A stretch of 64,000 nt of DNA from a virus. The DNA lies in the IMG/VR virus record IMGVR_UViG_3300045988_149625. One strand, 5' to 3'. The translations under genes were made by a program, and so were the position numbers. The number at the start of each line of letters is the position of its first letter. Position 1 is the stretch's first letter. A model generated the notes under the pieces. The model saw only the letters and a program-made list of their open reading frames with translations. It was not told where the DNA came from and did no database searches. Of the stretch, positions 4,416 to 21,496 are shown in pieces.

Positions 4416-4748
4416 TATTTTTCCTCCTTTGGCTCTATACAGCCATTACTATACCTAATGCCTTATATCCTTTTTGAAAAAATCAAGCTGGTTGCGATGC
4501 CCATTAATACGCATCTTGTAATTGATACGGTATGTAAAACAAATTCGTCTGCTTCTAACCAGCTGAGCACTTCTGTTGCTAACAGCAAGAGCATAACGGT
4601 TCTTAATACCATTATTACTTCCACTCCTTAATCTTTCTGCCACAACTTGGACAATAATCATGCCAGTATATTGTGTGGTATACGTCCGATTGACAATGGG
4701 AGCAGCGATATACTACAAATCCTTCCTCAATGCCCGCGTAATTCATCG

Positions 4749-4964: not shown

Positions 4965-5189
4965 TTACGTCCATAGCCACAACTTACCAAGTTCTTTAGC
5001 AACCTTTGTCGTTAGCCGAACTTTTGTGCAAGTAGGCTCATGTGGTTCACAATTAGGGCAATAACGCACTAATTCAACGTGTTCACTACCGTGACACTCA
5101 CAAGGGAAGCCATAATAGTAATACTTTCTATTTAAGCTCTTAGATTCTTTGTGACAAATATCACAAATGCCACTTTCACAATCATCCAT
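4965..5189 (-). CDS. Cys-rich zinc-finger protein
   Basis: 74 aa with CDICH, CECH, CPNC, CTK cysteine pairs. Confidence 0.4.
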   Translation of the reverse strand: MDDCESGICDICHKESKSLNRKYYYYGFPCECHGSEHVELVRYCPNCEPHEPTCTKVRLTTKVAKELGKLWLWT

Positions 5190-5205
5190 GTTACTACTCC
5201 TTTAT

Positions 5206-5436
5206 TTATTTAACCTCTTCTACTTCTACATATTCAAGTTCACTGTCAGCATAAATACTTGCTGTTGCTTCATCAGTACCACAAACGCCTATAAGCTTAT
5301 TTGTCCCACCGTTACCACAATAGTTATCAATACTAACATTATCATAAGCCTTTTCAATGGCTTCTTCTTCGTTTTCTGCTTCTACCGTCACTTCAACAAC
5401 TACATTAGCATACCCTGTTACAGTATATTTTTTCAT
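5206..5436 (-). CDS. hypothetical protein
   Basis: 76 aa ORF. Confidence 0.4.
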   Translation of the reverse strand: MKKYTVTGYANVVVEVTVEAENEEEAIEKAYDNVSIDNYCGNGGTNKLIGVCGTDEATASIYADSELEYVEVEEVK

Positions 5437-5442
5437 CAGTTT

Positions 5443-5640
5443 TCATTCCTTTTCTTTATTGATTCTTTCAACAAGGTCATTTACAGCGTTTACAGCTTCC
5501 CTATAGGTGTCATAAGTGTGGCATTTATAAGACACATCACTATTTATAATAAACACGCGAACCTCATTGTTGGCTGAAATACATATAGATTCAATGTATT
5601 GTGTGTTTATCCAATGTTGTTTACCAAACTTAATAAACAT
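5443..5640 (-). CDS. hypothetical protein
   Basis: 65 aa ORF, ATGA-type overlap with downstream gene. Confidence 0.35.
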   Translation of the reverse strand: MFIKFGKQHWINTQYIESICISANNEVRVFIINSDVSYKCHTYDTYREAVNAVNDLVERINKEKE

Positions 5641-7315: not shown

Positions 7316-7472
7316 GGGTATTTAGCCATTCAAGCGCTGGTATTCCATTAATTGTAATACCTCCACTCCCTTCTTTAAGAGGCATCCCCATATCTTCAAG
7401 AACCTTTTTAAATAATTCTACATCTTTATCCGTTATTGATTCTTTTCTCTGCTGTTTCATAATAATCCCCAT
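7281..7472 (-). CDS. hypothetical protein
   Basis: 63 aa ORF. Confidence 0.3.
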   Translation of the reverse strand: MGIIMKQQRKESITDKDVELFKKVLEDMGMPLKEGSGGITINGIPALEWLNTHELFPDFRGKS

Positions 7473-8180
7473 TTAATTCTATTCCTATAAAGTTGCGGTT
7501 TGTGTTAAGGCAAGCAACACCTGTACTTCCGCTGCCCATACAATTATCTAAAACTGTATCTCCTTCATGTGTATAGGTTTTGATAAGGTATTCCAATAAA
7601 GGTACAGGCTTTTCAGTAGGGTGGAAACCATTTGTAGGTTTATCAAAATATAAGATATTTCCTGGAAGTCTTTCTGTCACAGTCTTTGGTGCAAAATTTT
7701 CTTTAGGATGAAAATTAGAGACGACAACAGCACTAATGCCACCCTTTCGGTTAGAGCACCATGTATTTTTATAAGGTGCGCCCTTTTCCATAATTGGAAA
7801 GTAATTCATACTTCCCTTTTTAGAATGAGCACTTGCCATTTTAGAGAAAACCATAATATCTTCGTTTAATTTAAACGGTTGAAATTTTGCGTTTAAAAAG
7901 TTGCTTCCTTTATTCTTAACCCATTTCCAATCATACTTGTACGTAAGGGGGGGGGACAAGATAAGCGTAGGTGACTAGAGAATGGTTCATTTCCAAAGAG
8001 TACCACTGCTCCAGATGGCTTGATTAAACGAATATATTCCTGCCAAAGACGTTCAAAGTTTAGTACAGTATCCCATTTACACGCGCTTGTTCCATATGGT
8101 AAATCGCAGAGAATCATGTCAATACTTTCATCTTCTAAAATAGGAAATACTTTAAAACAATCTTCATTAAAAATTTTCAT
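7426..8180 (-). pseudogene. beta-class N6-adenine/N4-cytosine DNA methyltransferase, frame broken at a G9 homopolymer (candidate phase-variable gene)
   Basis: N-part (7893-8180) carries DPPY-like motif ILCDLPYGTS; C-part (7426-7959) carries SAM motif VLDNCMGSGSTGVA; the two frames overlap at GGGGGGGGG 7947-7955; a 10-G tract would give a continuous protein aligning with the paralog at 8794-9558. Confidence 0.75.
7947..7955. repeat. poly-G tract (9 G)
   Basis: homopolymer inside MTase coding sequence at the frame junction. Confidence 0.9.
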
Positions 8181-8636: not shown

Positions 8637-8876
8637 TTATAATGCAAAGTCCAATCCAACCCCTACATTACCCTCTACTTCATCAATCTCTTTATCCTCA
8701 GCATAGCTAACAACCTTTTTCCATTCTTGCTCGGTAAGTTTTTCGCCATTAATAGCTTTATCAAGTAATTCTTCAATAGTTAATTCAATTTTATCAAAAT
8801 TGTTCATATGTGAGTATCTCCTTTTCAATCCCTTTCTTTGCAGCATTAAAGTATGTTTCATTAAGCTCAAATCCAA
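8637..8876 (-). CDS. hypothetical protein
   Basis: 79 aa ORF. Confidence 0.35.
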   Translation of the reverse strand: MDLSLMKHTLMLQRKGLKRRYSHMNNFDKIELTIEELLDKAINGEKLTEQEWKKVVSYAEDKEIDEVEGNVGVGLDFAL

Positions 8877-9558
8877 TGTAGTTTCTATTAGTATGTAGAC
8901 ATGCTACACCTGTTGACCCACTACCCATACAGTTATCTAGGACTGTTTCTCCCTCATTGGTGTAGGTCTTAATTAGATACTCTAGCAAGGGTATAGGTTT
9001 TTGGGTGGGATGTATTGGTTTGGGAACACAATCAAACTGTAATGTATCCCAAGGATAATTAGTATATTCAGAAATGGTAACATCTTTATGCGAAGGTCTT
9101 TTCCCAGCCATAGTGCCAAATTTTGCTCCGCTTTTACCCCTGCGAATCGTCTTTTTTGCAATCAGTCCTTGGGGAAAGTATTTCATCTTGTTTTTGCCAC
9201 CATTTGCCGTTACACCTTTTGAAAAAACCGCAATTTCTTCATAGGAAGTCATAGGGCGATTTTTAGCATTTACGAAGTTTCCTCGTTTGTTTTTTAACCA
9301 TACCCATTTATATCTATATAACTTTTCGTTGCTGTTAATCAATTTGTGCGTAAACTGTCCACTGCAAAACAACACAATAGCTCCATTATTTTTAATTATT
9401 CGCTCATATTCTCCCCATAATTGGGAGAAGTCAATTACTTTATCCCAACCGCTTGCCGTAGTTCCATATGGCAAGTCACACAAAATCATGTCAACGCTTT
9501 TGTCAGGTATAGCCTTCATTAACTCTAAGCAATTACCTTGTTTAATATAACTCTGCAT
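8794..9558 (-). CDS. beta-class N6-adenine/N4-cytosine DNA methyltransferase (intact paralog)
   Basis: 254 aa; motif IV ILCDLPYGTT near N-term, motif I VLDNCMGSGSTGVAC near C-term (order IV...I, hence beta class). Confidence 0.8.
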   Translation of the reverse strand: MQSYIKQGNCLELMKAIPDKSVDMILCDLPYGTTASGWDKVIDFSQLWGEYERIIKNNGAIVLFCSGQFTHKLINSNEKLYRYKWVWLKNKRGNFVNAKNRPMTSYEEIAVFSKGVTANGGKNKMKYFPQGLIAKKTIRRGKSGAKFGTMAGKRPSHKDVTISEYTNYPWDTLQFDCVPKPIHPTQKPIPLLEYLIKTYTNEGETVLDNCMGSGSTGVACLHTNRNYIGFELNETYFNAAKKGIEKEILTYEQF

Positions 9559-9933: not shown

Positions 9934-11013
9934 TTAATTTAGATTACGCACTTGGAAAGCATCCCCAAGTTCAATAATATCTGGGTAGTTGTTCTTAGCA
10001 ACTTTAATTGCAAAGTTGTCTATTTCATACGCTAAATAATGTACATTTGTAAAGCCTAGCTTATCTAAACAGTATCTGCCTGTGGCAATGCCGTCGTATA
10101 AAGAAACAACTTGTAATTCTTCATTTCGTGGAACGTCTTTTAATAAATGTGATAATAAATGAATTATTACCTCAGCCGTCCAACCATTACCTAAACACTT
10201 ATATCTTTGTGAATTACTGATTCCTGCTGTAAAATTATCTGGCAGTGTCTGCAATCTTTCACACTCCACAGGAGTAAGTTTGCGAATTTCATAAATGCCA
10301 TTATCAAGTTTAACATCGTACCATTTATCTCTGATAAGCATTTGCCCATTTTGTACGATGTATCCTTTAGAGGACGGAATGGCATATAATCCTGTCTTTG
10401 CACCAATACCGCCACCGTTAGCGGTTAAATTTACACTCTTACCGTCAATGCTATAAACACGGTAAGCTTGCGAAGTAGAAATTGTTCCATCAGATTTTGG
10501 TAAATTTCCTATTCTAATTGCCACCATATTACGTTGTTTACGCTCTAAAGTATTCCAAGCAACGCAATTACCATAACGTGCTGTTAAACAGTAGGCTTTG
10601 TCATTACAAGTTAAATCAACGCCATTTTCCAAAATATCTCTGAGAACAATCCCTCTATCTTCTGGAATAGGTGCAATTCCATTCAACCAATAATAGCGTT
10701 TACGCATTTGCGCCGAAACAAGTGCGCTGTCAATAGGAATTGGCGAAGTTCTCAATTCATTTGAAATTTGCTCTTTAATTGCGGATGACATAGATTGATT
10801 ATTTTCATATAAGAAAAAGTCTGGTTTGAATTGTTCTTTTGCAATTAAAAAATTCTTAAATAATTCCCAACCTTGCCCCGCAGCTACAACCTCTCTGCCT
10901 TCACGCTTAGCAATGCTCCAATATGTACAGGGAGAAGCGCCTAGAAGTAATTTAATCATAAAATCTGTCCTTTCCGTATAACTTATGCCAATTTTCTCTA
11001 ATTGATTTTGCAA
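9934..11013 (-). CDS. DNA cytosine-5 methyltransferase with permuted motif order (IV,VI,VIII,TRD,IX,X then I,II,III)
   Basis: 359 aa; GASPCTYWS (PC motif) at residues ~25-33, LYENNQS (ENV-like), LTPVECERLQTLPDNF (IX), GNGWTAEV (X), then C-terminal VVSLYDGIATGRYCL (motif I FxGxG), YLAYEIDNFA (II), LGDAFQV (III) just before the stop. Confidence 0.8.
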   Translation of the reverse strand: MQNQLEKIGISYTERTDFMIKLLLGASPCTYWSIAKREGREVVAAGQGWELFKNFLIAKEQFKPDFFLYENNQSMSSAIKEQISNELRTSPIPIDSALVSAQMRKRYYWLNGIAPIPEDRGIVLRDILENGVDLTCNDKAYCLTARYGNCVAWNTLERKQRNMVAIRIGNLPKSDGTISTSQAYRVYSIDGKSVNLTANGGGIGAKTGLYAIPSSKGYIVQNGQMLIRDKWYDVKLDNGIYEIRKLTPVECERLQTLPDNFTAGISNSQRYKCLGNGWTAEVIIHLLSHLLKDVPRNEELQVVSLYDGIATGRYCLDKLGFTNVHYLAYEIDNFAIKVAKNNYPDIIELGDAFQVRNLN

Positions 11014-11024
11014 CTTCTGTAAGT

Positions 11025-11222
11025 ATGAACACTGTAACTATAGCTACTACTAAAATAAGTGACACTAGCACTACCATAAGCATCAGAACGAATGACTGCT
11101 CTAGTAAAGGTGTGCCAACTGTAATCATAGTAATAATCTCCTTTCTTTTAATAAGAGTATATCACATAGCTTTGTGGGTGTCAATAGTCTTTAAAGAAAA
11201 AAGTCCCCCAAAAGGGACTTAA
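11025..11222 (+). CDS. small hydrophobic ORF (doubtful)
   Basis: 65 aa, lone plus-strand ORF inside leftward block. Confidence 0.2.
   Translation: MNTVTIATTKISDTSTTISIRTNDCSSKGVPTVIIVIISFLLIRVYHIALWVSIVFKEKSPPKGT
11194..11219 (-). terminator. rho-independent terminator (AGTCCC-TTTTGG-GGGACT + T6) on minus strand; bidirectional hairpin
   Basis: read on minus strand: aagtcccttttgggggacttttttcttt. Confidence 0.5.
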
Positions 11223-11891: not shown

Positions 11892-12111
11892 CTATAAATT
11901 CCTCCGAACAAATTTCAAAGCGTTTTGCATCTACAATGTCAATAAGGTCTTTGTAGGAATAGCAGCTGTCCGTCCAAGTACCTACAAAGCGTTGTACATC
12001 CCCTGTTTTAGTAATTCTGTAAGGGCTATGTTCCCCTTTGATAAGAAACGTATCAGAGGCACTAATCCCCATTCCTTCAAGAATGAGCTTTACAATTTTA
12101 GGTTTTAGCAT
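11851..12111 (-). CDS. hypothetical protein
   Basis: 86 aa ORF. Confidence 0.35.
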   Translation of the reverse strand: MLKPKIVKLILEGMGISASDTFLIKGEHSPYRITKTGDVQRFVGTWTDSCYSYKDLIDIVDAKRFEICSEEFIDGDCIKKTRASKK

Positions 12112-12356
12112 AAGATTAAATCCTCTTTACTTAATTCTTGTTTAAGTGGTTCAGATATACGTTGAACCCACACATCATCTTTATCTTTTGGAGCGTCTAA
12201 AACGCGTACAACCTCTCCTACGACTAAGAAGTGATAATTACGAGGTTGTTTAACAATGCCTAAAGTATGCACTGGTTGAAAATAACGATATGTTATTCCC
12301 CAAGGATGTAGGTATCCCCACTTATTCTTTCCAAAATTCTTTCGTGAAAGTAACAT
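12105..12356 (-). CDS. hypothetical protein
   Basis: 83 aa ORF. Confidence 0.35.
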   Translation of the reverse strand: MLLSRKNFGKNKWGYLHPWGITYRYFQPVHTLGIVKQPRNYHFLVVGEVVRVLDAPKDKDDVWVQRISEPLKQELSKEDLILC

Positions 12357-12654
12357 TTTCTAAATCTCCCTCTTTTTCTCTAAGAAACTTTCCATACATA
12401 TAGTCCCACGTGGCTTTATGCTTTATAGAAACCTTTTTGTTTTCGTCCCAAACTATAACGTCCCCTTTCAATGCAGGTAAAACGCCGTTTACAGTGTTTA
12501 CGTATACTGCGCTTTTAACCTCTAGATAGAGGGGGTACTTTTCCCAAGATGTTTCAATCGCAGGTACTGCAACTAAAGTTGGTTCAAGAATTTGTAGCAC
12601 TGGAAAGCTTTGCGCTATTAAATTGGGCTTTAAATTTTCAGACATAAGAATCAC
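12322..12654 (-). CDS. hypothetical protein (first gene of leftward operon)
   Basis: 110 aa ORF, ~100 nt downstream of leftward consensus promoter. Confidence 0.45.
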   Translation of the reverse strand: MILMSENLKPNLIAQSFPVLQILEPTLVAVPAIETSWEKYPLYLEVKSAVYVNTVNGVLPALKGDVIVWDENKKVSIKHKATWDYMYGKFLREKEGDLENVTFTKEFWKE

Positions 12655-12760
12655 CTACTAAACCCCACAATAAAGGCTTACGATAAATTTTAAATGGGAA
12701 TTTAGCCTTTATTAATGGGATTTCAACACTTTTACACTTAATTTTTCACACGATAAATTT

Positions 12761-12789
12761 CCATAATCTTATTATACCACAGGTTTTTA
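12761..12789 (-). promoter_or_regulatory. sigma70-type promoter, leftward (TTGACA-17-TATAAT with TGn)
   Basis: minus-strand read: ggtattgacagatataaaaacctgtggtataat. Confidence 0.7.
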
Positions 12790-12974
12790 TATCTGTCAAT
12801 ACCCTTTACCAAAAATTTTTAAAATATTTTAGCATGAGATTTTCAAAAAGAAATCCTTGAAATTCTTACCAGGTACTTTTCCATTTTAAGACACATTTTT
12901 GTCACATAAAATGGTAAAATCCTTGAAACCCTTGTAAAATGGGGATTTATTTTGTCAAAAGTGTGAAATCCTTA

Positions 12975-13225
12975 AAGAAAAAAGAGAAAAAAGAAAGAAA
13001 AGAAAAGTAACCAAAAGAAAAGAAATAAAAAAGAGATTAAAAGAAACAAAATAATAAATCCTTTTCTAATTAATCTTTATAGATACTTTTAGTCTAAAAT
13101 TCCTTATATATATAATATAATAATATAATATAATAATTTTTATTTTTATTTTTGTTTTTCTTTTGTTTTCTTTTTCTCTTTTCTTTTTGGTTCTTTTTCT
13201 TTTCTCGTTTTCTTTTAAGGATTTT
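12975..13225. repeat. imperfect ~85 bp inverted repeat of polypurine (AAAG-rich) and polypyrimidine (CTTTT-rich) arms flanking an AT-only core (TATATATATAATATAATAATATAAT)
   Basis: left arm tccttaaagaaaaaagagaaaaaagaaagaaaag...; right arm is its approximate reverse complement ...cttttctcgttttcttttaagga. Confidence 0.7.
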
Positions 13226-13237
13226 TGCCTAGGGGTA

Positions 13238-13266
13238 TTGACAAAACTCAAAAAGTGTGGTATAAT
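13238..13266 (+). promoter_or_regulatory. sigma70-type promoter, rightward (TTGACA-17-TATAAT, TGn extended -10)
   Basis: ggtattgacaaaactcaaaaagtgtggtataat. Confidence 0.7.
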
Positions 13267-13304
13267 AGGATTACACGATAAATTTTCACGAAAACAAGCA
13301 AATC

Positions 13305-13649
13305 TTGGAGGGAACGATTTTGATAGATAAGCAATACACACGAGCAGAAATCGTCGATATGGAGCTTTACGAATTTTTTGATTTGATAGCAAAAGCAAGT
13401 ATAAGCCAAGTCCTTGTAATCAAGCAATCTCTTGAAAAAAGCAAGATAGAAACGCTGCATATAGCAGAGCAGTATAAGAAAAAGATGTTTGATTTTACAT
13501 CCGATTCTTTTGACGGTGCAAAATTTGATGAGTATTTCACTCATACCATTAGATGTTTTGCGTTGGCAATGTATATTGACAAGAAGATAACGCTTTGCAA
13601 GCGTCGCGAAGAGGATTTAACTCCCAAAGTTTTTAAAAAAGGCTCTTGA
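13305..13649 (+). CDS. hypothetical protein (first rightward gene)
   Basis: 114 aa ORF downstream of rightward promoter. Confidence 0.45.
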   Translation: MEGTILIDKQYTRAEIVDMELYEFFDLIAKASISQVLVIKQSLEKSKIETLHIAEQYKKKMFDFTSDSFDGAKFDEYFTHTIRCFALAMYIDKKITLCKRREEDLTPKVFKKGS

Positions 13650-13674
13650 CAATCCATAATATCTGTGCTAAAAT
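13646..13674 (+). promoter_or_regulatory. sigma70-type promoter (TTGACA-17-TAAAAT)
   Basis: ctcttgacaatccataatatctgtgctaaaat. Confidence 0.5.
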
Positions 13675-13686
13675 GTTTTTAAAAGA

Positions 13687-14013
13687 TTGGAGGTACAGAT
13701 AATGGACGAAGCAAAAGCAAGACTTTTGATACAGCGTATAGATGCTAGTATTGAAATGTTGAATCAAACTAAACAGGACATTCTTGATTTTCTAGGAAAT
13801 GATTCTTTAGCACAGATTAAAGAATTGGAGGAAAATGAAAAATATACTGTTGAGCCTACTTTTATTGGCGACGACGGCAAAGAGTATAAATGTGGTACAG
13901 CATATTTAAAAGCTAAGACATGGTACTGTTGCGGTTATCCGCTTCAAAAGGAGGTAAAAAATGGTAAGCAAGTATATCATTGTAGCAAGTGCGGCACTGA
14001 TTACAGCGCTTAA
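13687..14013 (+). CDS. hypothetical protein with C-terminal zinc ribbon
   Basis: 108 aa; CGYPLQ...CSKCG. Confidence 0.45.
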   Translation: MEVQIMDEAKARLLIQRIDASIEMLNQTKQDILDFLGNDSLAQIKELEENEKYTVEPTFIGDDGKEYKCGTAYLKAKTWYCCGYPLQKEVKNGKQVYHCSKCGTDYSA

Positions 14014-14479
14014 TTTTAATGTTATTTTTCCAGCTTATTATTTATATGACAGCCTTAGTTCACAAAATAATACCACAATAATTAAGCAGCCCACAATTAA
14101 GCAGACCACGCCTGTGATAGAGCCTTATCAAAAAGCTTCTGCGCATGAAGAAGAGATTGCAGGACTTCATTTTGTAGCTACTGCATATACAGCAGCAGAA
14201 GATGAATGTGGTAAGCCTATGGGGCATCCAGATTATGGTAGAACCGCTAGTGGTGAAATGGTGCGGCGTGGTATTGTAGCCGTAGATACTGATGTTATTC
14301 CAATGCACTCTTTGATTAGAATTGAGGGTGCAGGTGATTTAAGTGGTGTTTACGAGGTGAAAGATACAGGCGGTGCTATAAAAGGGAATAGAGTTGATAT
14401 TTATGTTCCGACTAAACATGAAGCATATAAATTCGGTAAACGAGATATTAAAGTTTTTATTTTAAGAGAGGGTAAGTAA
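13961..14479 (+). CDS. 3D-domain protein (MltA/YuiC-like cell-wall-binding/lytic domain) with N-terminal signal/TM
   Basis: 172 aa; conserved Asp-containing block GIVAVDTDVIPMHSLIRIEGAG...VKDTGGAIKGNRVDIY. Confidence 0.65.
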   Translation: MVSKYIIVASAALITALNFNVIFPAYYLYDSLSSQNNTTIIKQPTIKQTTPVIEPYQKASAHEEEIAGLHFVATAYTAAEDECGKPMGHPDYGRTASGEMVRRGIVAVDTDVIPMHSLIRIEGAGDLSGVYEVKDTGGAIKGNRVDIYVPTKHEAYKFGKRDIKVFILREGK

Positions 14480-14926
14480 TTGGGATACTTTTTTAACGAT
14501 TTATCTAAACGCAGTTTTCATAAAGTGGAAAATGATTCTAGTGGTAATGCAAGGCTGCCAGAGAGAAAGACAGCATTATCAGCAGGATATGACTTCTATC
14601 TAGCACAGGATATTACTATTGCACCTAGAAGCTTAGGAATGGCGCATAGCGGTATTGCTGTTGATATGTATGATACAGATGTTTTGATTATTACGCCTAG
14701 AAGCTCTACCTGCAAACGAGGTTTAATCTTAATGAACTCACCATCAATTATTGATGCAGATTATCACGGAGAGATTATGTTTCCCCTCTATAACTTAAAT
14801 GATTACCCTATTACGTTAAAAGCGGGTGAAAGAGTTACACAAGGAATTTTCCTAAAATACAATACTTTGGGTGACGTTGTAACGCAGCAACGTGTAGGTG
14901 GTTTCGGAAGTACAAAAAATTTTTAA
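14480..14926 (+). CDS. dut: dUTP diphosphatase
   Basis: 148 aa; dUTPase motifs AGYDF, PRSSTCKRG, IDADYHGEIM, RVGGFGSTKN. Confidence 0.9.
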   Translation: MGYFFNDLSKRSFHKVENDSSGNARLPERKTALSAGYDFYLAQDITIAPRSLGMAHSGIAVDMYDTDVLIITPRSSTCKRGLILMNSPSIIDADYHGEIMFPLYNLNDYPITLKAGERVTQGIFLKYNTLGDVVTQQRVGGFGSTKNF

Positions 14927-14934
14927 AAAAGGTA

Positions 14935-14963
14935 TTGACAAACAACAAGACTTGTGATATACT
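14935..14963 (+). promoter_or_regulatory. sigma70-type promoter ahead of tRNA island (TTGACA-17-TATACT)
   Basis: ggtattgacaaacaacaagacttgtgatatact. Confidence 0.6.
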
Positions 14964-15051
14964 ATAATTACAGCAAAGGTAGTACAGCAATGCAGATGAT
15001 ATGTTTGACTGTGAATGTTTGATTTATAGTTTTTGGCACTACCTTGTAAAT

Positions 15052-15123
15052 GCCTCGGTAGTTTAATTGGTAGAACGGTGGACTCCAAATCCATTGGTCT
15101 GGGTTCAAGTCCTAGCCGAGTGT
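15052..15123 (+). tRNA. tRNA-Trp (anticodon CCA)
   Basis: cloverleaf folded by hand; anticodon loop cuCCAaa; top two acceptor pairs mismatched. Confidence 0.55.
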
Positions 15124-15164
15124 GCCAATTTTAAATAATTTTTGTTTTAAAAGGAGAAATAATT

Positions 15165-15551
15165 ATGAGATTACGTTACATTGTAGACAAAGAACATGGC
15201 GTAGTAGTTTGTATTGGTGAGTGCGGTGAATTTGACCTTATGAAAGACCTCGGTATTCTTGATAAAGATTGTTCTAATATTGACGATATTCCTTTACAAG
15301 AACTGCTTGCATATTCTTTAAGCTCTTCATTTAAGGGCGTTGCAAAACTCGCAGATGGGGATGTTTGGGATGAGCAGCTTGGTAAAGATATTGCGCGTGA
15401 GAAATGCTTTGCAAAATATAATTCTGCAAAGAAACATAAAGTTGAGAAACTGATTGAGCAAGCTAAGTCAGTATTGGAAGTTTTAAATGCACATAAAGAA
15501 GCTTACGAAACTCTCGGTACTATCGAGAATTATTACAAAAGACTTAATTAA
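15165..15551 (+). CDS. hypothetical protein inside tRNA island
   Basis: 128 aa ORF with RBS-like aaaggagaaataatt. Confidence 0.5.
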   Translation: MRLRYIVDKEHGVVVCIGECGEFDLMKDLGILDKDCSNIDDIPLQELLAYSLSSSFKGVAKLADGDVWDEQLGKDIAREKCFAKYNSAKKHKVEKLIEQAKSVLEVLNAHKEAYETLGTIENYYKRLN

Positions 15552-15623
15552 TAGTGACTCCTAGATACTTACATTAATTACACATTGCTACAAAATATAC
15601 TCCTATAAGTATCTAGGGTATAT

Positions 15624-15701
15624 GCTCCCTTATCCCAATTCGGCAGAGGAAACTGTCTTAGAAACAGTTTAGTGTGGGTTCAAATCCCACAGGGAGTACC
15701 A
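15624..15701 (+). tRNA. tRNA with anticodon TAG (nominally Leu-CUA) but class I (short variable arm); identity uncertain
   Basis: acceptor gctccct/agggagt, perfect anticodon stem actgt/acagt with loop cuUAGaa, T-arm gtggg-ttcaaat-cccac, encoded CCA. Confidence 0.6.
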
Positions 15702-15708
15702 ATATTAT

Positions 15709-15798
15709 GGAGTGGTGGCAGAGTCTGGTTTATTGCACCTGTCTTGAAAACAGACGAACTGAGAAGTTCCGTGGGTTCAAATCCCACCCACTCCCCCA
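15709..15798 (+). tRNA. tRNA-Ser (anticodon TGA)
   Basis: acceptor ggagtgg/ccactcc, loop cuUGAaa, long variable arm, CCA encoded. Confidence 0.7.
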
Positions 15799-15946
15799 TG
15801 CTTACTAAGTTTATCAGCAGATGGTTACAGTTGGTTGTGTCTTAGTAAGCCTTGCCCAGCAAGAAGGGCATTGTAAAGAATATTTTTGCAGGGGTAGCAT
15901 CCTCTAATCAAAATGTAGAGGGACTGCCTAGGCTTTCCCTCAAAAT

Positions 15947-16033
15947 GGCTTACGTCGCCTAGAGGTCAATGGCAGGGGACTGTAAATCCCCCGCGTTTAC
16001 GCTGCGTGGGTTCAAATCCCACCTAAGCCACCA
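15947..16033 (+). tRNA. tRNA-Tyr (anticodon GTA)
   Basis: anticodon stem gggga/tcccc, loop cuGUAaa, long variable arm, T-arm gtggg-ttcaaat-cccac, CCA. Confidence 0.65.
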
Positions 16034-16169
16034 TAAGCTAAGTGCTCCCAAATCACATGGCTTAATATTCCTTAGTAGTGCGGGGAAAAGAACAGCATTA
16101 CAGTTTGACTTACTTACAAGTGTTTCTGTAAATAGGTAGTCTTTGCAGAGCACTACCTATTTTACACAT

Positions 16170-16263
16170 GGAAAGTTAAGCCTAATGGTAAGGCAGAAGT
16201 TTGCTAAACTTCCAGTAGTCACTTATTAGTGATGTATGGGTTCAAGTCCCATACTTTCCCCCA
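16170..16263 (+). tRNA. tRNA-Ser (anticodon GCT)
   Basis: acceptor ggaaagt/actttcc, loop uuGCUaa, long variable arm, CCA. Confidence 0.7.
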
Positions 16264-16281
16264 AAATTTTCAAATTTAGTA

Positions 16282-16310
16282 TTGACAAATTGGGAAATCC
16301 ATGATATACT
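16282..16310 (+). promoter_or_regulatory. sigma70-type promoter within tRNA island (TTGACA-17-TATACT)
   Basis: gtattgacaaattgggaaatccatgatatact. Confidence 0.55.
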
Positions 16311-16328
16311 AATTACAGTAAAGGAAAT

Positions 16329-16404
16329 GCTCTTTTCATCCAATAGGTAAGGATGCACGACTTATAATCGTGTCATAGAGGTTCAAGTCCCCTAGAGAGC
16401 ACCA
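16329..16404 (+). tRNA. tRNA-Ile (anticodon TAT, reads AUA)
   Basis: acceptor gctcttt/agagagc, D-stem atcc/ggat, anticodon stem cacga/tcgtg loop cuUAUaa, CCA. Confidence 0.7.
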
Positions 16405-16483
16405 TAAAAACTTTTGCTACGGAGTTTGAATAAGGTTTGTTTTTGTTAGCTCCTTTCTGTACCTTATTTTTCAAGTAGCCTAT

Positions 16484-16559
16484 GATGTGTTGGTCTAATG
16501 GTTAGGACAATAGCCTTTCAAGCTGTTAATGCAGAGTTCGATTCTCGCACATATCACCA
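16484..16559 (+). tRNA. tRNA-Glu (anticodon TTC)
   Basis: acceptor gatgtgt/acatatc, loop cuUUCaa, T-stem with one bulged A, CCA. Confidence 0.6.
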
Positions 16560-16614
16560 TGCTCAGTCGAGGGTTCGATTACCTCACTCCCTACTATTAA
16601 TCTTTAATTAAAGA

Positions 16615-16691
16615 GAGCTGTTAGCCAAGTTGGGGAAGGCATTGGTCTGCAAAACCAACATTCAAGGGTTCGATTCCCTTACAGCTCTCCA
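16615..16691 (+). tRNA. tRNA-Cys (anticodon GCA)
   Basis: acceptor gagctgt/acagctc, anticodon stem ttggt/accaa loop cuGCAaa, T-arm aaggg-ttcgatt-ccctt, CCA. Confidence 0.7.
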
Positions 16692-16775
16692 AATTGAGGT
16701 ATCTTCTAAAGGTAGGAAACAAGACTTTGACTCTTGGAATAGTGGTTCGAGTACATTTACCCCAGCCAGGTTTTA

Positions 16776-16852
16776 CGGCATATAGCGCAGTTTGGTAGCG
16801 CACCTGCCTTGGGAGCAGGGGGTCGCAGGTTAAAATCCTGCTATGCCGACCA
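16776..16852 (+). tRNA. tRNA-Pro (anticodon TGG)
   Basis: acceptor cggcata/tatgccg, D-stem gcgc/gcgc, anticodon stem cctgc/gcagg loop cuUGGga, CCA. Confidence 0.7.
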
Positions 16853-16989
16853 TAAGATGCTACAGCAAATTTGAACAAAAATGTTTATGGAAGAAAATAT
16901 TTTAATAGCATCTTGTTTTAAAGTGCCTCAGCAATCTTTTTAAGAACAACATTTCGGAAAACATGTAACTATTAAGGCACTTTGTAAAT

Positions 16990-17060
16990 GCGGGTGTAGT
17001 TTAGTGGTAAAATTACAGCCTTCCAAGCTGATGTTGTGAGTTCGATTCTCATCGCCCGCT
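16990..17060 (+). tRNA. tRNA-Gly (anticodon TCC), CCA not encoded
   Basis: close resemblance to Bacillus-type tRNA-Gly(TCC) (gcgggtgtagtttagtggtaaaa...ccttccaagctgatg...gagttcgattctcatcgcccgct). Confidence 0.75.
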
Positions 17061-17118
17061 CGCCTTGCTAAGTAAGCAACCTTCTCGTGGTGCAAGGTGT
17101 TTTAAACTAATAGCTTAC
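17059..17118 (+). repeat. 60 bp direct repeat copy 1 (ctcgccttgctaagtaagcaaccttctcgtggtgcaaggtgttttaaactaatagcttac)
   Basis: identical copy at 18480-18539; each starts at the 3' end of a tRNA (Gly, Thr). Confidence 0.9.
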
Positions 17119-17179
17119 GTAAACTAAGGAATTAGGGGATAACAACACCTCCCCTTAACAATAGTTAAGGAGGGATTTT

Positions 17180-17815
17180 ATGGCATTTATTTATAAAATT
17201 ACTAATGATATAAATGCTAAGGTGTATATTGGTAAAACTTTAGGTAGTATCAAGAAAAGGTGGAAAGAGCATTTAAAAGACTGTAAGAAGAGGAAAAATG
17301 AAAAACGACCTCTCTACGCTGCTATGAGAAAATATGGCACAGAGCATTTTAAGATTGCCTTAATAGAAGAGTGTCCTGAAGATATTGTTTCTGATAGGGA
17401 AATTTATTGGATTGAATACTTTGGTTCTTTCAAAAGTGGTTATAATGCTACAACAGGTGGGGATGGGAAGTCTTACTTAGACCGCAACATTGTAGGCGTA
17501 TTTTGGATATTTAATAAAAACATACATGAGATACAACAGCTTACAGGTTACTCCTCCTCTACAATTAGAAATGCACTACACCAATTTGGTATAGACCCCT
17601 TTTATATTAAAAAGAGGGGTAGCGAGGGTACTTATAAATCTGTTAGTATGCTCACAAAAGATGGTAAGTTTATTAGGAGCTTCCATTCTATTACCGAAGC
17701 TAATGCTTATATTGAATCTATTTATCATTGTAAAATTAATGGTGGAGGGCATATACCTTGCGTTTGCTCTGGAAAAAGAGTAACAGCTTATGGTTATAAA
17801 TGGGTATATAATTAA
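17180..17815 (+). CDS. GIY-YIG homing endonuclease (SegB/I-TevI-like) with C-terminal HTH
   Basis: 211 aa; FIYKITN...KVYIGKT (GIY...YIG), R/E/N catalytic block KKRWKEH...EIYWIEYF...YNATTGGDG; embedded in tRNA cluster. Confidence 0.85.
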   Translation: MAFIYKITNDINAKVYIGKTLGSIKKRWKEHLKDCKKRKNEKRPLYAAMRKYGTEHFKIALIEECPEDIVSDREIYWIEYFGSFKSGYNATTGGDGKSYLDRNIVGVFWIFNKNIHEIQQLTGYSSSTIRNALHQFGIDPFYIKKRGSEGTYKSVSMLTKDGKFIRSFHSITEANAYIESIYHCKINGGGHIPCVCSGKRVTAYGYKWVYN

Positions 17816-17832
17816 TTCTCATCGCCCGCTCC
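17815..17832 (+). repeat. duplicated 3' fragment of tRNA-Gly (ttctcatcgcccgct + CCA) abutting HEG stop codon
   Basis: 16 nt identical to 17045-17060. Confidence 0.7.
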
Positions 17833-17934
17833 ATATGTTGAGGGTAGAAAGGCGGCTACCGTCTAATAAGAATAGCTTAGATTGAAAATTTCTTATTGGA
17901 AGATGTGGAAAATGTCGTTCCACCAACATTAAAC

Positions 17935-18008
17935 TTCCCCATAGGTTATGGATAAACTAAGGGACTTCTAATCCTTTGCTCTGTGTTCGACTCACAGTGG
18001 GGAAGCCA
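17935..18008 (+). tRNA. tRNA-Arg (anticodon TCT)
   Basis: acceptor ttcccca/tggggaa, loop cuUCUaa, T-arm ctgtg-ttcgact-cacag, CCA. Confidence 0.65.
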
Positions 18009-18012
18009 AAAT

Positions 18013-18088
18013 GCGCACATAACTCAGTTGGTAGAGTAACCGACTTTTAATCGGTATGTCCTAGGTTCAATTCCTAGTGTGCGCACCA
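18013..18088 (+). tRNA. tRNA-Lys (anticodon TTT)
   Basis: acceptor gcgcaca/tgtgcgc, D-arm actc-agttggtag-agta, loop cuUUUaa, CCA. Confidence 0.75.
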
Positions 18089-18094
18089 TTTTAT

Positions 18095-18179
18095 GTGCCT
18101 GTGGCGTAATTGGCAGCCGCAAGGGACTTAAAATCCCTCGGATTTATCCGTACCAGTTCGAGTCTGGTCAGGCACACCA
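18095..18179 (+). tRNA. tRNA-Leu (anticodon TAA)
   Basis: acceptor gtgcctg/caggcac, anticodon stem aggga/tccct loop cuUAAaa, long variable arm, CCA. Confidence 0.75.
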
Positions 18180-18331
18180 AATGCGGCAAAGCACAAGTGT
18201 GTAGTTGAGGAAGCAAGGACTCAAAAGGGTGTGTGCAACTCCTACTTGCCGCGCCATATGGGTTGATAATGTAACAGTTAATACTTTGAACTATAACAAG
18301 GAATTATATTCAAGTATTTCAGCCCAATCTT

Positions 18332-18407
18332 GCTTCTCTAGCTCAGTTGGTAGAGCAAAGGATTGAAAATCATTGTGTGAGTGGTTCGATTCCATTGGGA
18401 AGCACCA
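18332..18407 (+). tRNA. tRNA-Phe (anticodon GAA)
   Basis: D-arm gctc-agttggta-gagc, loop uuGAAaa, T-arm agtgg-ttcgatt-ccatt, CCA. Confidence 0.65.
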
Positions 18408-18410
18408 AAT

Positions 18411-18481
18411 GCTGGCATAGTTTAATGGTAAAACGCTAGTTTTGTAAACTAGCTTTGCGGGTTCGATTCCTGCTGCCAGCT
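18411..18481 (+). tRNA. tRNA-Thr (anticodon TGT), CCA not encoded
   Basis: acceptor gctggca/tgccagc, anticodon stem ctagt/actag loop uuUGUaa. Confidence 0.7.
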
Positions 18482-18539
18482 CGCCTTGCTAAGTAAGCAA
18501 CCTTCTCGTGGTGCAAGGTGTTTTAAACTAATAGCTTAC
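18480..18539 (+). repeat. 60 bp direct repeat copy 2
   Basis: identical to 17059-17118. Confidence 0.9.
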
Positions 18540-18569
18540 AAGAGATTAATTGAGGAAGCCCCCAAAAAT

Positions 18570-18644
18570 TGGCATATAGCTCAATGGTAGAGTAGATGAC
18601 CGTTAATCATTTGGCTGTAGGTTCGAGTCCTACTATGCCAGCCA
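18570..18644 (+). tRNA. tRNA-Asn (anticodon GTT)
   Basis: acceptor tggcata/tatgcca, D-arm gctc-aatggta-gagt, loop ccGUUaa (C33 unusual), CCA. Confidence 0.6.
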
Positions 18645-18670: not shown

Positions 18671-20206
18671 ATGAGTGTTACTTTTATGACAGCACTACAA
18701 AACGAAGCAAATAAGAGTGTTACAGAAAACGGCGCAGTAGGGTACAACACCACCTACAATGAGCTGTTGGATTTTAATTATAAAGTACCTTCATTGCGTA
18801 AGGCAGATGATGCAAACTTGCAAAAAGAGGTAGCACTACTTGTTAGTAGCATTGTTGACCCCGAACTTTTGCTACGTTACATGTTCTTTTTGCGGGACGC
18901 GCGTGGAGGAATGGGTGAAAGACGTATCTTTCGTGCTATTTTAAAGGAACTTGCAAACAGGAACTTTGAATATGTTCCTAGGATGCTGCCTTTAATAGTT
19001 GAGTATGGAAGATATGACGACCTATTTGTTTTAAAGGATACACCATTTCAAGAGGAAATGGAAGGCTATATTATAGGAACTTTATTGTCAGATGAATATT
19101 CAATGGCTAATAATGAACCTTGTTCCTTACTTGCAAAATGGATGCCATCGGTTAATGCAAGTAGTAAAGAAACCATCAAACTTGCAAATTACTTTGCTAG
19201 AGATGTTTTTAATACTACACCTGCAAAATACCGCAAGCGTCTTTCTGCATTACGCAAGCACTTAAAGGTTGTTGAAGCACAGATTAGTCGCGGAGAGTTT
19301 TCTGAGATTAATTATGAAGGAGTACCTTCAAGAGCAAATCTGCGTTACTCTAATCTTTTCCTAGATAGAGATAATGAACGCAGAAGGCAGTATTTGAAGA
19401 GCTTAGCAAGTGGGAAAGTAAAGATTAATGCAGGAGTTCTTTACCCACAAGATATTGTGGCGAAGCTAAGAGGATTATCCGATTCTGTTTATAGCTTTAG
19501 ATTCTCCAAGCAGATTCCGCAGCTTTATAAGAACCAATATAATGCAATGTGGAAAGGACTCAAAGACTTTGGTGAGCTTAAAAATACTATTGTTGTAGTT
19601 GATACTAGCGGTTCAATGTTTGAACCTGTTAGTTCTTCTATTGCGGCAATAGATGCTTCTGTTGGTTTAGGTCTTTATTTTGCCGAAAGAAATGCGGGTG
19701 TCTTTAAAGATAAAATTATTACGTTTAGTGATAATCCTACATTTGTTGATGTATCTAAATATAACAATATTTTAGATAAATTAATAGCAGTTTCAAAAGC
19801 AGAGTGGGGATTTTCTACAAATGTTGAAGCAGTATTTGATTTAGTTCTAAGAACTGCGGTAGCAAATCACTGTGAACAGTCTGAGATTCCTAGAATCTTA
19901 ATCATTAGTGATATGGAATTTAATTACTGTGTTTCAGATTCAGAGCACTTTTTGATGAAGGATATAGAATCTGACTTTAAGGCAGCAGGTTATGAGCTTC
20001 CAAAGCTTTCATTCTGGAATGTAAATTCAAGAACGAATACTCTGCCTATCACACAGAATAAACAAGGGGTTGCACTTGTTAGTGGCTATTCCACTGCTTC
20101 AATAAAAGCTGTAATGAGCAATGAGGTAGACCCATATAAAGCTTTCCTAGAGTGTTTTTACACTCCTAGGTATGACTTTATAAAAGAAGTGTTGGACATT
20201 AAATGA
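18671..20206 (+). CDS. von Willebrand factor A domain protein (MIDAS DxSxS), possibly DUF2828-like
   Basis: track ORF begins inside tRNA-Asn; likelier start ATG 18671 (MSVTFMTALQ); vWA core IVVVDTSGSMF...ILIISDMEF. Confidence 0.55.
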   Translation: MSVTFMTALQNEANKSVTENGAVGYNTTYNELLDFNYKVPSLRKADDANLQKEVALLVSSIVDPELLLRYMFFLRDARGGMGERRIFRAILKELANRNFEYVPRMLPLIVEYGRYDDLFVLKDTPFQEEMEGYIIGTLLSDEYSMANNEPCSLLAKWMPSVNASSKETIKLANYFARDVFNTTPAKYRKRLSALRKHLKVVEAQISRGEFSEINYEGVPSRANLRYSNLFLDRDNERRRQYLKSLASGKVKINAGVLYPQDIVAKLRGLSDSVYSFRFSKQIPQLYKNQYNAMWKGLKDFGELKNTIVVVDTSGSMFEPVSSSIAAIDASVGLGLYFAERNAGVFKDKIITFSDNPTFVDVSKYNNILDKLIAVSKAEWGFSTNVEAVFDLVLRTAVANHCEQSEIPRILIISDMEFNYCVSDSEHFLMKDIESDFKAAGYELPKLSFWNVNSRTNTLPITQNKQGVALVSGYSTASIKAVMSNEVDPYKAFLECFYTPRYDFIKEVLDIK

Positions 20207-21496
20207 ATAAAAGACTACTCAAATGGGTAGTCTTTTTCCATAAGGAGGTAACAATGGTAAAATTTGTTAAAAAGCGGGATGGAAGTATAGTACCTTTTGA
20301 GAAGCAAAAGATTATAAATGCTATTGGTAAAGCGGGTTTTGTAAAAGAAGATATTAAAGAAAAAATTGCAGATGAAATTCTGCATCAAAAACAAGAAGAA
20401 CTTTCGGTAGAGGCTATACAAGATTTAGTGGAAAATAAGTTAATGGCTTCTTCTTGTAAAGAAACCGCTAAGGAATATATACGTTATCGTTATAAGAGAA
20501 AATTGATTAGAGAAACAAAAGATTCTTTAAGTGAAGTCTTAGATATTGTTAATCTCAGTAATCAAGAAGTGAATGAGGAAAATAGTAATAAAAACCCTGT
20601 TATTAACTCTACGCAGCGTGATTATATGGCTGGTATGGTGTCAAAAGAATTATCTGAGAAATTGTTATTCCCACCAGATGTAATGGAGGCACACAAAGCA
20701 GGTATTATTCATGTACATGACATGGATTATGCTATTCAAAAAATGTATAATTGTGCACTATTAGATATGGAAGATATGCTACAAAATGGTACAGTTATTA
20801 ACGGAACACTGATTGAGAAACCACATAGTTTTGCTACTGCTTGTAATATTGCCACACAGATTATGGCACAAGTTGCTTCTAATCAGTATGGTGGGCAGAG
20901 TGTTTCTATAACACATTTAGCACCATTTGTCAATACTTCAAGACAGAGATTGAGAAAAAAAGTTAGAGAAGAACTTGCTCCTTATTATGAAATCTGTGAG
21001 AGTGTGGTCTTTGATATTGCTGAAAAGCGATTGAAAGAGGAAATCACTAGAGGGGTTCAAACCATGCAGTATCAAATTAACACCCTTATGACTTCCAATG
21101 GTCAGACACCTTTTGTTACCTTATTCCTATATCTCAATGAAGCTAAGAATGAGCAGGAAAAGAAAGACCTTGCTATGGTAATTGAGGAAATCATTCGTCA
21201 GCGTTATCAAGGAGTCAAGAATGAAAAGGGTGCATGGATAACCCCTGCTTTTCCTAAGCTGATATATGTCTTAGAGGAAGATAATGTTAAGGAAGGAACT
21301 CCCTATTTTTACTTAACAAAGATGGCTGCAAAATGTACGGCTAAGAGGATGGTTCCAGATTATGTTTCTGAAAAGATTATGTTAGAGAATAAGAAAACGT
21401 CCGATGGTGTTGGACATTGTTATCCTCCTATGGGATGCAGAAGCTTCTTAACACCATATCTTGATGAAAATGGAAAAGCTAAATTCTATGGACGGT
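20203..21496 (+). CDS. nrdD: anaerobic ribonucleoside-triphosphate reductase NrdD, exon 1 (ATP-cone + catalytic core N-part)
   Basis: ATP-cone VKFVKKRDGSIVPFEKQKIINAI; core GIIHVHDMDY...; ORF ends abruptly without glycyl-radical motif; splices to 22316. Confidence 0.8.

Follow-up and report, generated by a model that had tools for sequence, protein, structure and literature searches.

What is the function of the DNA at the point where the two gene arms of a tailed phage part, and why is it so extreme in composition? We address this question for a window of 64,000 nt (the whole stretch of DNA that was analysed) from IMG/VR record IMGVR_UViG_3300045988_149625, which derives from a tailed phage of ~100 kb and ~35% G+C. 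Two outward-facing consensus promoters, separated by ~440 bp, enclose a purine-rich arm, a run of A+T only and a pyrimidine-rich arm (the central element; Table 1). A sequence-only reading of this region had proposed an early/late genetic switch, an origin of replication with an unwinding element, or both. The central element is a conserved non-coding module that is easily melted, as expected at an origin. It is highly probable that it represents a structural DNA element under selection and endowed with triplex potential. That the module is driven by supercoiling from the divergent promoters and serves as a replication origin is our preferred reading, which we consider possible, if a little short of probable.

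The ~34-nt purine run, the AT-only stretch and the following pyrimidine run, as described in the sequence-only reading, are all present, and all go beyond chance. The purine-only run (12974-13007, 34 nt) is the sole one of at least 20 nt in the window, the 60-mers 12976-13035 and 13157-13216 are its most purine-rich and most pyrimidine-rich, respectively, and the AT-only run of 50 nt is its longest, the second longest measuring 21 nt. The least stable duplex of the 64 kb also falls in this region (z 4.5-4.75). The arms are inverted relative to each other, as had been noticed, but they do not compose a single imperfect palindrome of ~85 bp: there are two arms of ~60 nt, 71-79% complementary and ~110 nt apart. 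The single strand 12960-13230 folds better than its shuffles (z = -5.4), and the outer boundaries of the arms (12966-12977 and 13212-13224) form a perfect inverted repeat of 11-12 bp, while the centre has no perfect palindrome beyond (TA)5. A/T tracts recur every 5-6 nt; classic curved DNA was rejected, since no 10-11-nt phasing of these tracts was found. Rfam covariance models run over 12000-15200 gave no match except a tRNA. The two minus-strand open reading frames (ORFs) called across the region, 13066-13398 and 13248-13544, are spurious low-complexity read-throughs, as had been supposed, and so is the plus-strand ORF 13163-13330.

Such extremity would mean little if it were confined to one genome. 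Megablast and blastn revealed no nucleotide similarity between the window and cultured phages. More distant relatives were found via homologues of the first rightward gene (52-77% identical) and by a motif scan. The latter yielded the loci labelled L068 and L121/L137, with flanking proteins that share 30-67% identity with their counterparts in the window. Two IMG/VR contigs are ~94% identical over the region, and positions 12966-13290 are almost invariant there. The order of leftward promoter, purine arm, AT-only run, pyrimidine arm and rightward promoter is constant in the window, L002, L005, L068, L009, L121 and L314/L315, across which the flanking proteins are 30-77% identical. The 33-nt arm core is near-identical in relatives with flanking proteins of 30-57% identity. 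In all eight relatives' intergenic regions examined, the longest AT-only run measures 32-64 nt, its composition being kept and its sequence not. The short dyad beside the core differs by lineage (TTTAGTCTAAA in the window, ATTACGTTAGTAAT in L121/L007, AATACTAACGTATT in L314 and ACTAAAC-TATC-GTTTAGT in L068), and the outer inverted repeat is the least conserved part of the element. In all clade members the element is single-copy and syntenic; L007 is rearranged. IMG/VR scans for the full layout of purine (R) arm, AT run and pyrimidine (Y) arm, with a spacing of 95-156 nt, returned this clade only. A separate observation concerns L010, whose right half (pyrimidine arm, promoter and gene) is identical to that of L314/L315, while the left halves differ, with the junction inside the AT core. 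Either a recombination event at the core or a chimeric contig would account for this pattern.

What has been kept in the arms is a particular kind of symmetry. Dimeric DNA-binding proteins read dyad symmetry, while mirror symmetry is the defining requirement of an intramolecular triplex; homopurine-homopyrimidine mirror repeats are reportedly the motif of this structure, also called H-DNA, a notion associated with Mirkin and Frank-Kamenetskii. Four perfect R/Y mirror repeats with arms of at least 10 nt are found at the locus and no others in the 64 kb, and none of the Markov-chain simulations (n = 5) contained such repeats. Tract lengths differ between lineages, and in at least seven of them both halves of an arm are altered alike. 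The Y arms read T5-C-T4-C-T-C in the window, T6-C-T5-C-T-C-TT in L005, T4-C-T5-C-T4-C-TT in L121 and T4-C-T6-C-T5 in L010, and all four are perfectly mirrored about the spacer, with arms of 13-18 nt. The mirrored halves of the pyrimidine arm extend over 17 nt in L005, 18 nt in both L121 and L010, 14 nt in L068 and 11 nt in L009; those of the purine arm span 11-14 nt across lineages. Where the spacer itself has changed (GCTAC in L068, GTGCTAC in L009, GAAGC in L314), the symmetry is kept. When base runs were preserved and only their order was permuted, a fraction of 0.0004-0.06 of the shuffles per arm was as symmetric as the real sequence.

Complementarity between the two arms, by contrast, is not kept: tract lengths differ from arm to arm in the window, L005 and L121. 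Of the two structures that had been suggested, a cruciform or H-DNA, it is the latter that fits the conservation. Because mirror symmetry, meaningless for a dimeric protein, is kept and dyad symmetry is not, we conclude from the comparison of sequences that triplex-forming potential, and not cruciform potential, is under selection. In vivo, the arms would presumably form triplexes. The opposite position is that the element is a degenerate mobile element resembling a miniature inverted-repeat transposable element, or functionless low-complexity DNA made by slippage. Its perfect bounding inverted repeat, the presence of the core in many unrelated genomes (see below) and slippage-type indels between close relatives could be read in this way. 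However, a single-copy, syntenic element with no visible target-site duplication, in which the outer repeat is the least conserved part, hardly resembles a mobile one, and mirror symmetry kept through lineage-specific changes is not expected from neutral slippage. We find this explanation scarcely credible.

Compared with known H-DNA motifs, the arms are typical in being perfect R/Y mirror repeats of 10-18 nt with a spacer of 1-7 nt. They are mostly A.T, so that T.A-T triplets could form without the need for acid pH, and they sit where negative supercoiling driven by transcription should peak. Unlike those motifs, however, they are paired and inverted around an AT-only core, and their symmetry is held by compensatory evolution. 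Moreover, the spacer G(T)AACC is conserved and found across phyla, which triplex formation alone does not need.

The promoters flanking the element both score 12/12 with TG and face outward. The rightward one lies at 13238-13266, exactly as claimed earlier; the leftward one is indeed a perfect TTGACA-17-TATAAT with TGn, but its position is 12799-12771 and not 12761-12789. The flanks that the two share (GGTATTGACA...GTGGTATAAT) are real, but they are a trait of the whole promoter family rather than special to this pair: TTGACA-N14-TGNTATAAT, with at most two mismatches, has 17 matches in the window against 1.6 expected. Among the 14 matches with flanks examined, all are oriented with their genes and most have TA in front. 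Promoters of this host-type class also precede packaging and structural genes (26162, 34747) and genes across both arms. In relatives whose contigs span the whole locus both predicted promoters are retained: the consensus leftward promoter in L002, L005, L068, L009, L121 and L314, and the rightward one with hexamers and TGTG invariant in six lineages. In their perfect hexamers, 17-nt spacing, TG at -15/-14, TRTG and many copies they agree with the extended -10 (TGn) sigma-A promoters of Gram-positive phages, such as the early ones of SPO1 and phi29, and the hub promoters are ordinary members of this type, at both of which initiation is predicted. No convincing inward promoter able to prime an R-loop with purine-rich RNA appeared in a promoter scan of the locus.

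To the left of 12645 all long ORFs are on the minus strand except two, 4323-4631, overlapping an ORF of the minus strand, and 5167-5577, for which no family match was obtained; to the right of 13320 the genes run on the plus strand. Two gene arms, both driven by consensus promoters, truly diverge here. As a side observation, the consensus promoters fall into two spacer classes, ...CTTAATTWTRTGWTATAAT at 23640, 26162 and 34747 and ...AAAGTGTGKTATAAT at 12799, 13238, 59715 and 63936. The latter class comprises the divergent hub and the replication module, and the classes may mark differently regulated sets.

Do the two promoters then make up a switch? Two families of repeats bear on this. The first, ACGATAAATTT, occurs in three exact copies (12680-12690, 12750-12760 and 13275-13285), all on the plus strand and with no other in the 64 kb. 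Their common orientation and the position 13275 had been given correctly, while the other two had been placed at 12691 and 12751. Two of them overlap the expected transcription start sites and point the same way in the genome, covering ~+1 to +12 on the right and +5 to +17 on the left. Related motifs, ACGAT/ACGAA, stand at the equivalent place of the rightward leader in L005, L009 and L068, and an ACGAT-type motif at transcript starts is common only to the closer relatives. In the leftward leader, a 19-bp hairpin (12660-12678/12704-12722) holds the copy 12680-12690 in its loop; the leader of L005 has an equivalent hairpin with another stem (TTGACAGATA/TATCTGTCAA) and ACACGAT in the loop. It is plausible that the ACGATAAATTT sites are candidate operators for joint shut-off in the sub-lineage of the window and L005 only; alternatively, they may work at the RNA level, as complementary segments in the two leaders. 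We also note that CGATAAATT, present at the three ACGATAAATTT sites, covers nine-tenths of the high-affinity motif for H-NS nucleation in proteobacteria, TCGATAAATT; the host is probably not a proteobacterium.

The second family, AAATCCTT (AAATCCTTRAA), has six exact copies in the window against 0.23 expected. Four of them are located between the promoters, as had been noticed, but they are not all direct repeats, the copy at 13214 being inverted. Copies 3 and 4 simply coincide with the outermost parts of the arms. In L001/L002, at 94% identity to the window, copies 1 and 2 already carry mutations, and the earlier idea of operators at these two finds no support here. The proposed search for the repeats in the rest of the window and in relatives thus gave a divided answer: ACGATAAATTT is private to the locus and partly kept in L005, whereas AAATCCTT copies 1 and 2 are not kept and two extra copies exist elsewhere. 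The possibility that AAATCCTT represents iterons shared with the replication module was rejected, as the copies at 59812 and 60270 are in coding DNA and copies 1 and 2 are not conserved.

An early/late switch would imply a regulator that binds the AAATCCTT and ACGATAAATTT sites and chooses between the leftward and rightward programmes. The enrichment and clustering of the repeats, and the overlap of ACGATAAATTT with both start sites together with its partial conservation in L005, agree with such a device. Nevertheless, AAATCCTT copies 1 and 2 are lost even at 94% identity, and the motifs are missing from distant relatives that keep the remaining architecture. Pfam, PHROG, fold and family searches recognised no regulator gene on either side of the locus, and no DNA-binding fold or family in the adjacent genes. 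The product of the first leftward gene, whose homologues (30-98% identical) keep the same position in relatives, has no PHROG or Pfam match. That of the first rightward gene, with ten homologues (52-98% identical), has no Pfam or PHROG match either; it was modelled as a four-helix protein (AlphaFold, pLDDT 91) without a significant PDB fold match, and we rejected it as a regulator, since this confident model matches no DNA-binding fold. Furthermore, because promoters of the same class drive genes throughout both arms, packaging and structural genes included, there is no obvious either/or choice to be made. Overall, the switch proposed earlier appears improbable.

The other proposal, an origin with an unwinding element, fares better, at least in part. 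It is well established that, as stated in the twin-domain model, negative supercoils accumulate between two promoters that fire divergently, and that negative supercoiling drives both the melting of AT-rich DNA and the formation of H-DNA. It is therefore tempting to propose the following scenario. Early in infection, heavy divergent transcription would load the ~440-bp spacer with negative supercoils. The torsion would open the AT core, flip the arms into H-DNA triplexes, or both, exposing defined single strands. The opened DNA could then act as a replication origin, an entry for the DnaC-like loader and the DnaB-like helicase encoded at 61-64 kb. The lineage-specific short dyad beside the core may be the site of an initiator, and the ACGATAAATTT sites at both transcript starts might be operators through which both promoters are shut off together. 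In this clade, a candidate A+T-rich unwinding element is available: the AT-only run is part of the least stable duplex and its composition is conserved. By contrast, neither an adjacent initiator gene nor DnaA boxes accompany it, and the candidate initiator sites amount to the non-conserved AAATCCTT repeats, the short lineage-specific dyads beside the core and the conserved but mirror-symmetric arms. The cumulative GC-skew minimum and the switch of gene strand are both at the locus; since they coincide, skew is uninformative about an origin, and the GC-skew check recommended earlier merely follows gene orientation.

The strongest independent support for an origin comes from outside the clade, because the same core with an AT run adjoins an initiator gene in unrelated phages. 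The 20-22-mer around GTAACC (13000-13021) has exact matches in unrelated viral contigs, and the 22-mer core recurs in more than 120 metagenome contigs, some of these matches being chance hits in lysine-rich coding DNA. Marine AT-rich phages (L025, L049, L053 and ~18 further loci) compose a syntenic family distantly related to cyanophage KBS-S-2A. In this family, 100-130 nt of AT-rich to AT-only DNA and a -35-like TTGACA hexamer come after the mirrored core, directly upstream of an initiator gene, whose product has a ribbon-helix-helix domain and a 'replication initiation O-like' match (E 2e-8). Downstream of this gene there are genes for an exonuclease, RusA and a Sak-like annealing protein. 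KBS-S-2A, the isolate nearest to the marine group, offers no annotated clue. The motif also stands within a replication-initiator/DnaD-like gene in L030, next to iterons and a helicase in L088, and bordering a primase/helicase module in L017. In the metagenome loci, no conserved protein partner of the motif was found beyond the marine-phage synteny. Restricted-base tracts also adjoin the motif: that of L015, upstream of a small terminase subunit gene, is adenine-free over ~380 nt, and positions 1-330 of L010 are almost purely A+C.

The marine phages also bear on an explanation that dispenses with replication. According to it, the module serves transcription only, as a torsional buffer or insulator and an upstream activating region for both promoters; its AT core and arms would take up the negative supercoils of divergent transcription or adjust how the promoters are coupled. 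Gram-positive promoters are known to be activated by T-rich DNA upstream of -35, supercoils can be absorbed by H-DNA as well as by melting, the module always stands between two consensus outward promoters in the clade, and in L009 and L068 the arms abut the -35 regions. However, the distance from arm to -35 varies from ~5 to ~365 nt on the left and from ~5 to 45 nt on the right, with no helical phasing, which makes the role of a fixed-phase activator or UP element unlikely. The other consensus promoters with upstream flanks examined have no such module, nor does the window contain a further mirror repeat of this kind. Finally, the core and AT run of the marine phages are located between co-directional genes, beside the initiator gene. 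We regard a purely transcriptional module as unlikely, though a serious alternative.

The arm core is also widespread in bacteria. The 22-mer is found at more than 120 places in bacterial genomes of many phyla, in several copies per genome, where it supplies the 3' arm as well as the tail of an intergenic hairpin present in multiple copies, GTTACTTTTCTTT-loop-AAAGAAAAGTAAC-CAAAAGAAAA (bacterial loci L141-L260; metagenome loci L022-L140). The taxa include Mucilaginibacter, Dyella, Selenomonadales, Lentisphaerae, Clostridia, Saprospiraceae, Desulfobacterales and Leptospirales. A complementary 5' arm is present in 103 of the 125 bacterial copies. The hairpin is often 3' of a gene or tRNA, with no constant neighbouring gene in the bacterial genomes. 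Hairpins with AYGGAY-type loops lie within 350 nt downstream in 28/125 copies; TwoAYGGAY RNA (RF01731) is matched beside the hairpin in L042 and L173 and directly precedes it in Dyella, while Rfam has no family at the motif itself in the other loci. The hairpin loop tends to pair with bases past the tail (3.31 observed vs 3.09 +/- 0.06 permuted), which suggests covariation for an extra stem. Read on the opposite strand, two U-rich strands separated by GGUUAC and followed by a loop and an A-rich tract would correspond to the layout of a fold-back triple helix. A literature search on the motif sequence gave no relevant match and no description of the hairpin element. In an Oscillospiraceae genome bin (L146, 3226-3458) three tandem 68-nt repeats, each with the 22-mer, directly follow a dUTPase gene. 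A CRISPR array was rejected here, as the whole 68-nt unit repeats, making these tandem repeats.

Might the phage arms, too, act as RNA? They could be transcribed copies of the hairpin with its U-rich clamp and A-rich tract and stabilise 3' ends through an RNA triple helix, or else be binding partners of such RNAs. The identity of the arm core with the bacterial 22-mer, the frequent 5' arm, the signal for an extra stem and the adjacency to TwoAYGGAY (Dyella, L042) would all suit this idea. Yet the phage arms are upstream of both outward promoters, with no convincing inward promoter, and the order of purine tract, 110-170 nt and pyrimidine tract is the reverse of that in the bacterial hairpin, which leaves the partner strand distant. 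No Rfam family matches the region. Put beside TwoAYGGAY RNA and its hairpin, the left-arm 22-mer is identical to the hairpin 3' arm plus tail, but the window has neither a TwoAYGGAY match nor a local hairpin. An RNA role of the arms is, in our opinion, very improbable. A more inclusive scenario would see the arms as phage copies of a cross-phylum module, a (GAAAA)n-type mirror repeat around G(T)AACC, selected for triple-helix formation. In bacteria it would work as a hairpin behind genes and TwoAYGGAY RNAs, and in phages as a supercoil-triggered origin opener in duplex DNA by AT-only runs. We consider this scenario conceivable but doubtful.

Several facts weigh against our preferred reading of the element as an origin. 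The recognisable replication genes are ~45 kb away, an initiator search over 59.9-62.5 kb gave no family match, and DnaA boxes are absent from ~1.5 kb of sequence on the left and ~4.5 kb on the right of the region. Bacillus phage BCD7, the nearest isolate (major capsid protein 51% identical), has no comparable element. Co-directional relatives show no change of skew at the motif. The motif is likewise found upstream of genes for a small terminase subunit (L015) and a PhuZ tubulin (L016), and the bacterial intergenic hairpins show no link to replication; its primary property may therefore be structural and not origin-specific. In addition, the formation of H-DNA at neutral pH in vivo is an assumption, and initiation of replication at the element is inferred.

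The element might also mark a junction of genome ends, that is, the boundary of a terminal repeat, a packaging site or a telomere-like site, in which case the arms would be inverted terminal sequences and the promoters would read inward from the virion ends. Some contigs do break here: the 100.5-kb scaffold L011 ends in the AT core, L008 at the R arm, and L007 and L010 nearby, and one unrelated occurrence of the motif precedes the small terminase subunit gene mentioned above. But assemblies commonly break at runs of 100% A+T and at shared repeats, and five contigs of ~100 kb, the window and the small contigs L314/L315 cross the element, their own ends being elsewhere and varied. The large terminase subunit gene is 13 kb from the element, and (TA)5 is the only perfect palindrome at its centre. 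No gene of protelomerase size or for a terminal protein was found among the profile-searched ORFs of the window, several long ORFs such as 41731-44742, 47812-49035 and 49036-50970 being unsearched and ~36 kb of the genome lying outside the window. A protelomerase target of the telRL type was rejected, as there is no long perfect palindrome and no candidate gene among the ORFs so searched. We hold a genome-end junction to be quite improbable.

Known origins offer a useful measure for the preferred reading. In oriS/oriL of herpes simplex virus (HSV) and in archaeal oriC, an A+T centre stands between inverted boxes that are bound by known initiators (UL9 and Orc1/Cdc6, respectively), and the HSV origin is between divergent genes. 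Here, too, an A+T centre stands between two inverted conserved boxes, as with the origin recognition boxes (ORB) and DNA unwinding element of archaeal oriC. However, the boxes of those systems are dyad-symmetric protein sites, while ours are mirror-symmetric arms of a putative origin with no identified initiator. Several phage origins depend on transcription nearby: lambda ori, with iterons and an AT-rich region, T4 oriF/oriG, the primary origin of T7, and the ori of Lactococcus phage c2, which is located between divergent early and late promoters. The present locus resembles all of these in having strong promoters beside an AT-rich unwinding region, and c2 also in being placed between divergent blocks of genes. 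It differs in that there are no conserved iterons, the promoters read away from the AT core, and in this clade no initiator gene contains or adjoins the putative origin. By its sequence, the locus may be classed as an origin-like divergent control region whose conserved elements are triplex motifs.

Finally, we would like to comment on the rest of the window. Consensus -35/-10 promoters with TG, GGAGG ribosome-binding sites and an anaerobic reductase indicate that the host is probably an anaerobic Gram-positive bacterium. Profile matches identified genes for anaerobic ribonucleotide reductase, DNA ligase, the large terminase subunit, the portal and the major capsid protein, and a replication module at 58-64 kb with a helicase, a DnaC-like loader and a DnaB-like helicase. 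The large subunit of the reductase is encoded in two pieces, of which 20203-21510 corresponds to the N-terminal and 22540-23241 to the C-terminal part of the family profile; the unassigned ORF 21626-22231 between them may be an intron or homing-endonuclease insertion. A cluster of 17 tRNA genes (15052-18644) is interrupted by a GIY-YIG-type homing endonuclease gene (17180-17815). Among the genes of the leftward arm are three for DNA methyltransferases (7426-7959, 8794-9558 and 9934-11013), a C5-methylase-like domain being present in the third. In the same part of the window, a symmetric G+C-rich hairpin (11201-11220), terminator-like on both strands by its score, is located directly upstream of the -35 of a leftward promoter at 11184-11156. 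A complete diversity-generating retroelement occupies 49036-52709, with 24 of 26 mismatches between its repeats at template adenines. The block AAGACACATTTTTGTCACA of the variable spacer (12888-12906) is common to the window and L005 only.

Table 1. Coordinates of the features of the divergent locus and of the retroelement, as positions in the 64,000-nt window.
Feature	Position	Strand	Details
First gene of leftward arm	12322-12645	minus	107 aa from ATG 12645; ribosome-binding site AGGTGAT 12649-12656
Leader of leftward transcript (predicted)	12646-12764	minus	~120 nt; two ACGATAAATTT copies, read as AAAUUUAUCGU in RNA
Leftward promoter (predicted)	12799-12771	minus	-35 at 12799-12794, -10 at 12776-12771; TTGACA, 17-nt spacer, TGG-TATAAT
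Variable spacer	12800-12965		AAATCCTTGAA copies 1 and 2 (12851-12861, 12917-12927); imperfect hairpin 12870-12925; block AAGACACATTTTTGTCACA 12888-12906
AAATCCTTRAA copies at locus	12851, 12917, 12966; 13214	plus; minus (13214)	
Purine arm	12966-13035	plus	outer boundary AAATCCTTAAAG 12966-12977, then mirror repeats 1 and 2
Purine-arm mirror repeat 1	12974-12996		11-nt arms
Purine-arm mirror repeat 2	12994-13025		AAAGAAAAGAAAA, GTAACC, AAAAGAAAAGAAA; 13-nt arms
Widespread 22-mer	13000-13021		in purine arm; arm core AAGAAAAGTAACCAAAAGAAAA
A/T-rich transition	13036-13103		11-bp palindrome TTTAGTCTAAA 13087-13097; midpoint between arm cores ~13100
AT-only core	13104-13153		50 nt, (TA)5 at 13105-13114; candidate DNA unwinding element
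Pyrimidine arm	13137-13224	plus	two mirror repeats and outer boundary CTTTTAAGGATTT 13212-13224
Pyrimidine-arm mirror repeat, shorter	13155-13175		10-nt arms
Pyrimidine-arm mirror repeat, main	13176-13206		CTCTTTTCTTTTT, GGTTC, TTTTTCTTTTCTC; 13-nt arms
Rightward promoter (predicted)	13238-13266	plus	TTGACA, 17-nt spacer, TGG-TATAAT (extended -10)
Leader of rightward transcript (predicted)	13273-13319	plus	ACGATAAATTT at 13275-13285; ribosome-binding site GGAGGG 13307-13312
First gene of rightward arm	13320-13649	plus	109 aa, TTG start
Variable repeat of retroelement	50830-50952		3' end of ORF 49036-50970
Template repeat of retroelement	51046-51168		
Reverse transcriptase gene	51417-52709		then tail-fibre gene 52712-53719
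AAATCCTTRAA copies in coding DNA	59812, 60270		

Whether H-DNA and other non-B structures have functions selected in vivo is an old and largely unresolved question, the evidence consisting mostly of motif enrichment or artificial constructs. The symmetry-preserving changes in at least seven phage lineages represent an evolutionary signature analogous to the covariation of base pairs in RNA. If the scenario of a cross-phylum module is true, it would be the first comparative-evolution demonstration of selection for H-DNA, tied to a defined biological role. Being small, single-copy, phage-borne and placed between two strong promoters, the element is open to direct testing. That bacteria of many phyla carry the identical 22-mer suggests a structural element that is widely shared but has gone unrecognised. 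If the element is an origin, it would represent a new origin architecture for widespread ~100-kb gut or rumen phages and for a marine phage family.

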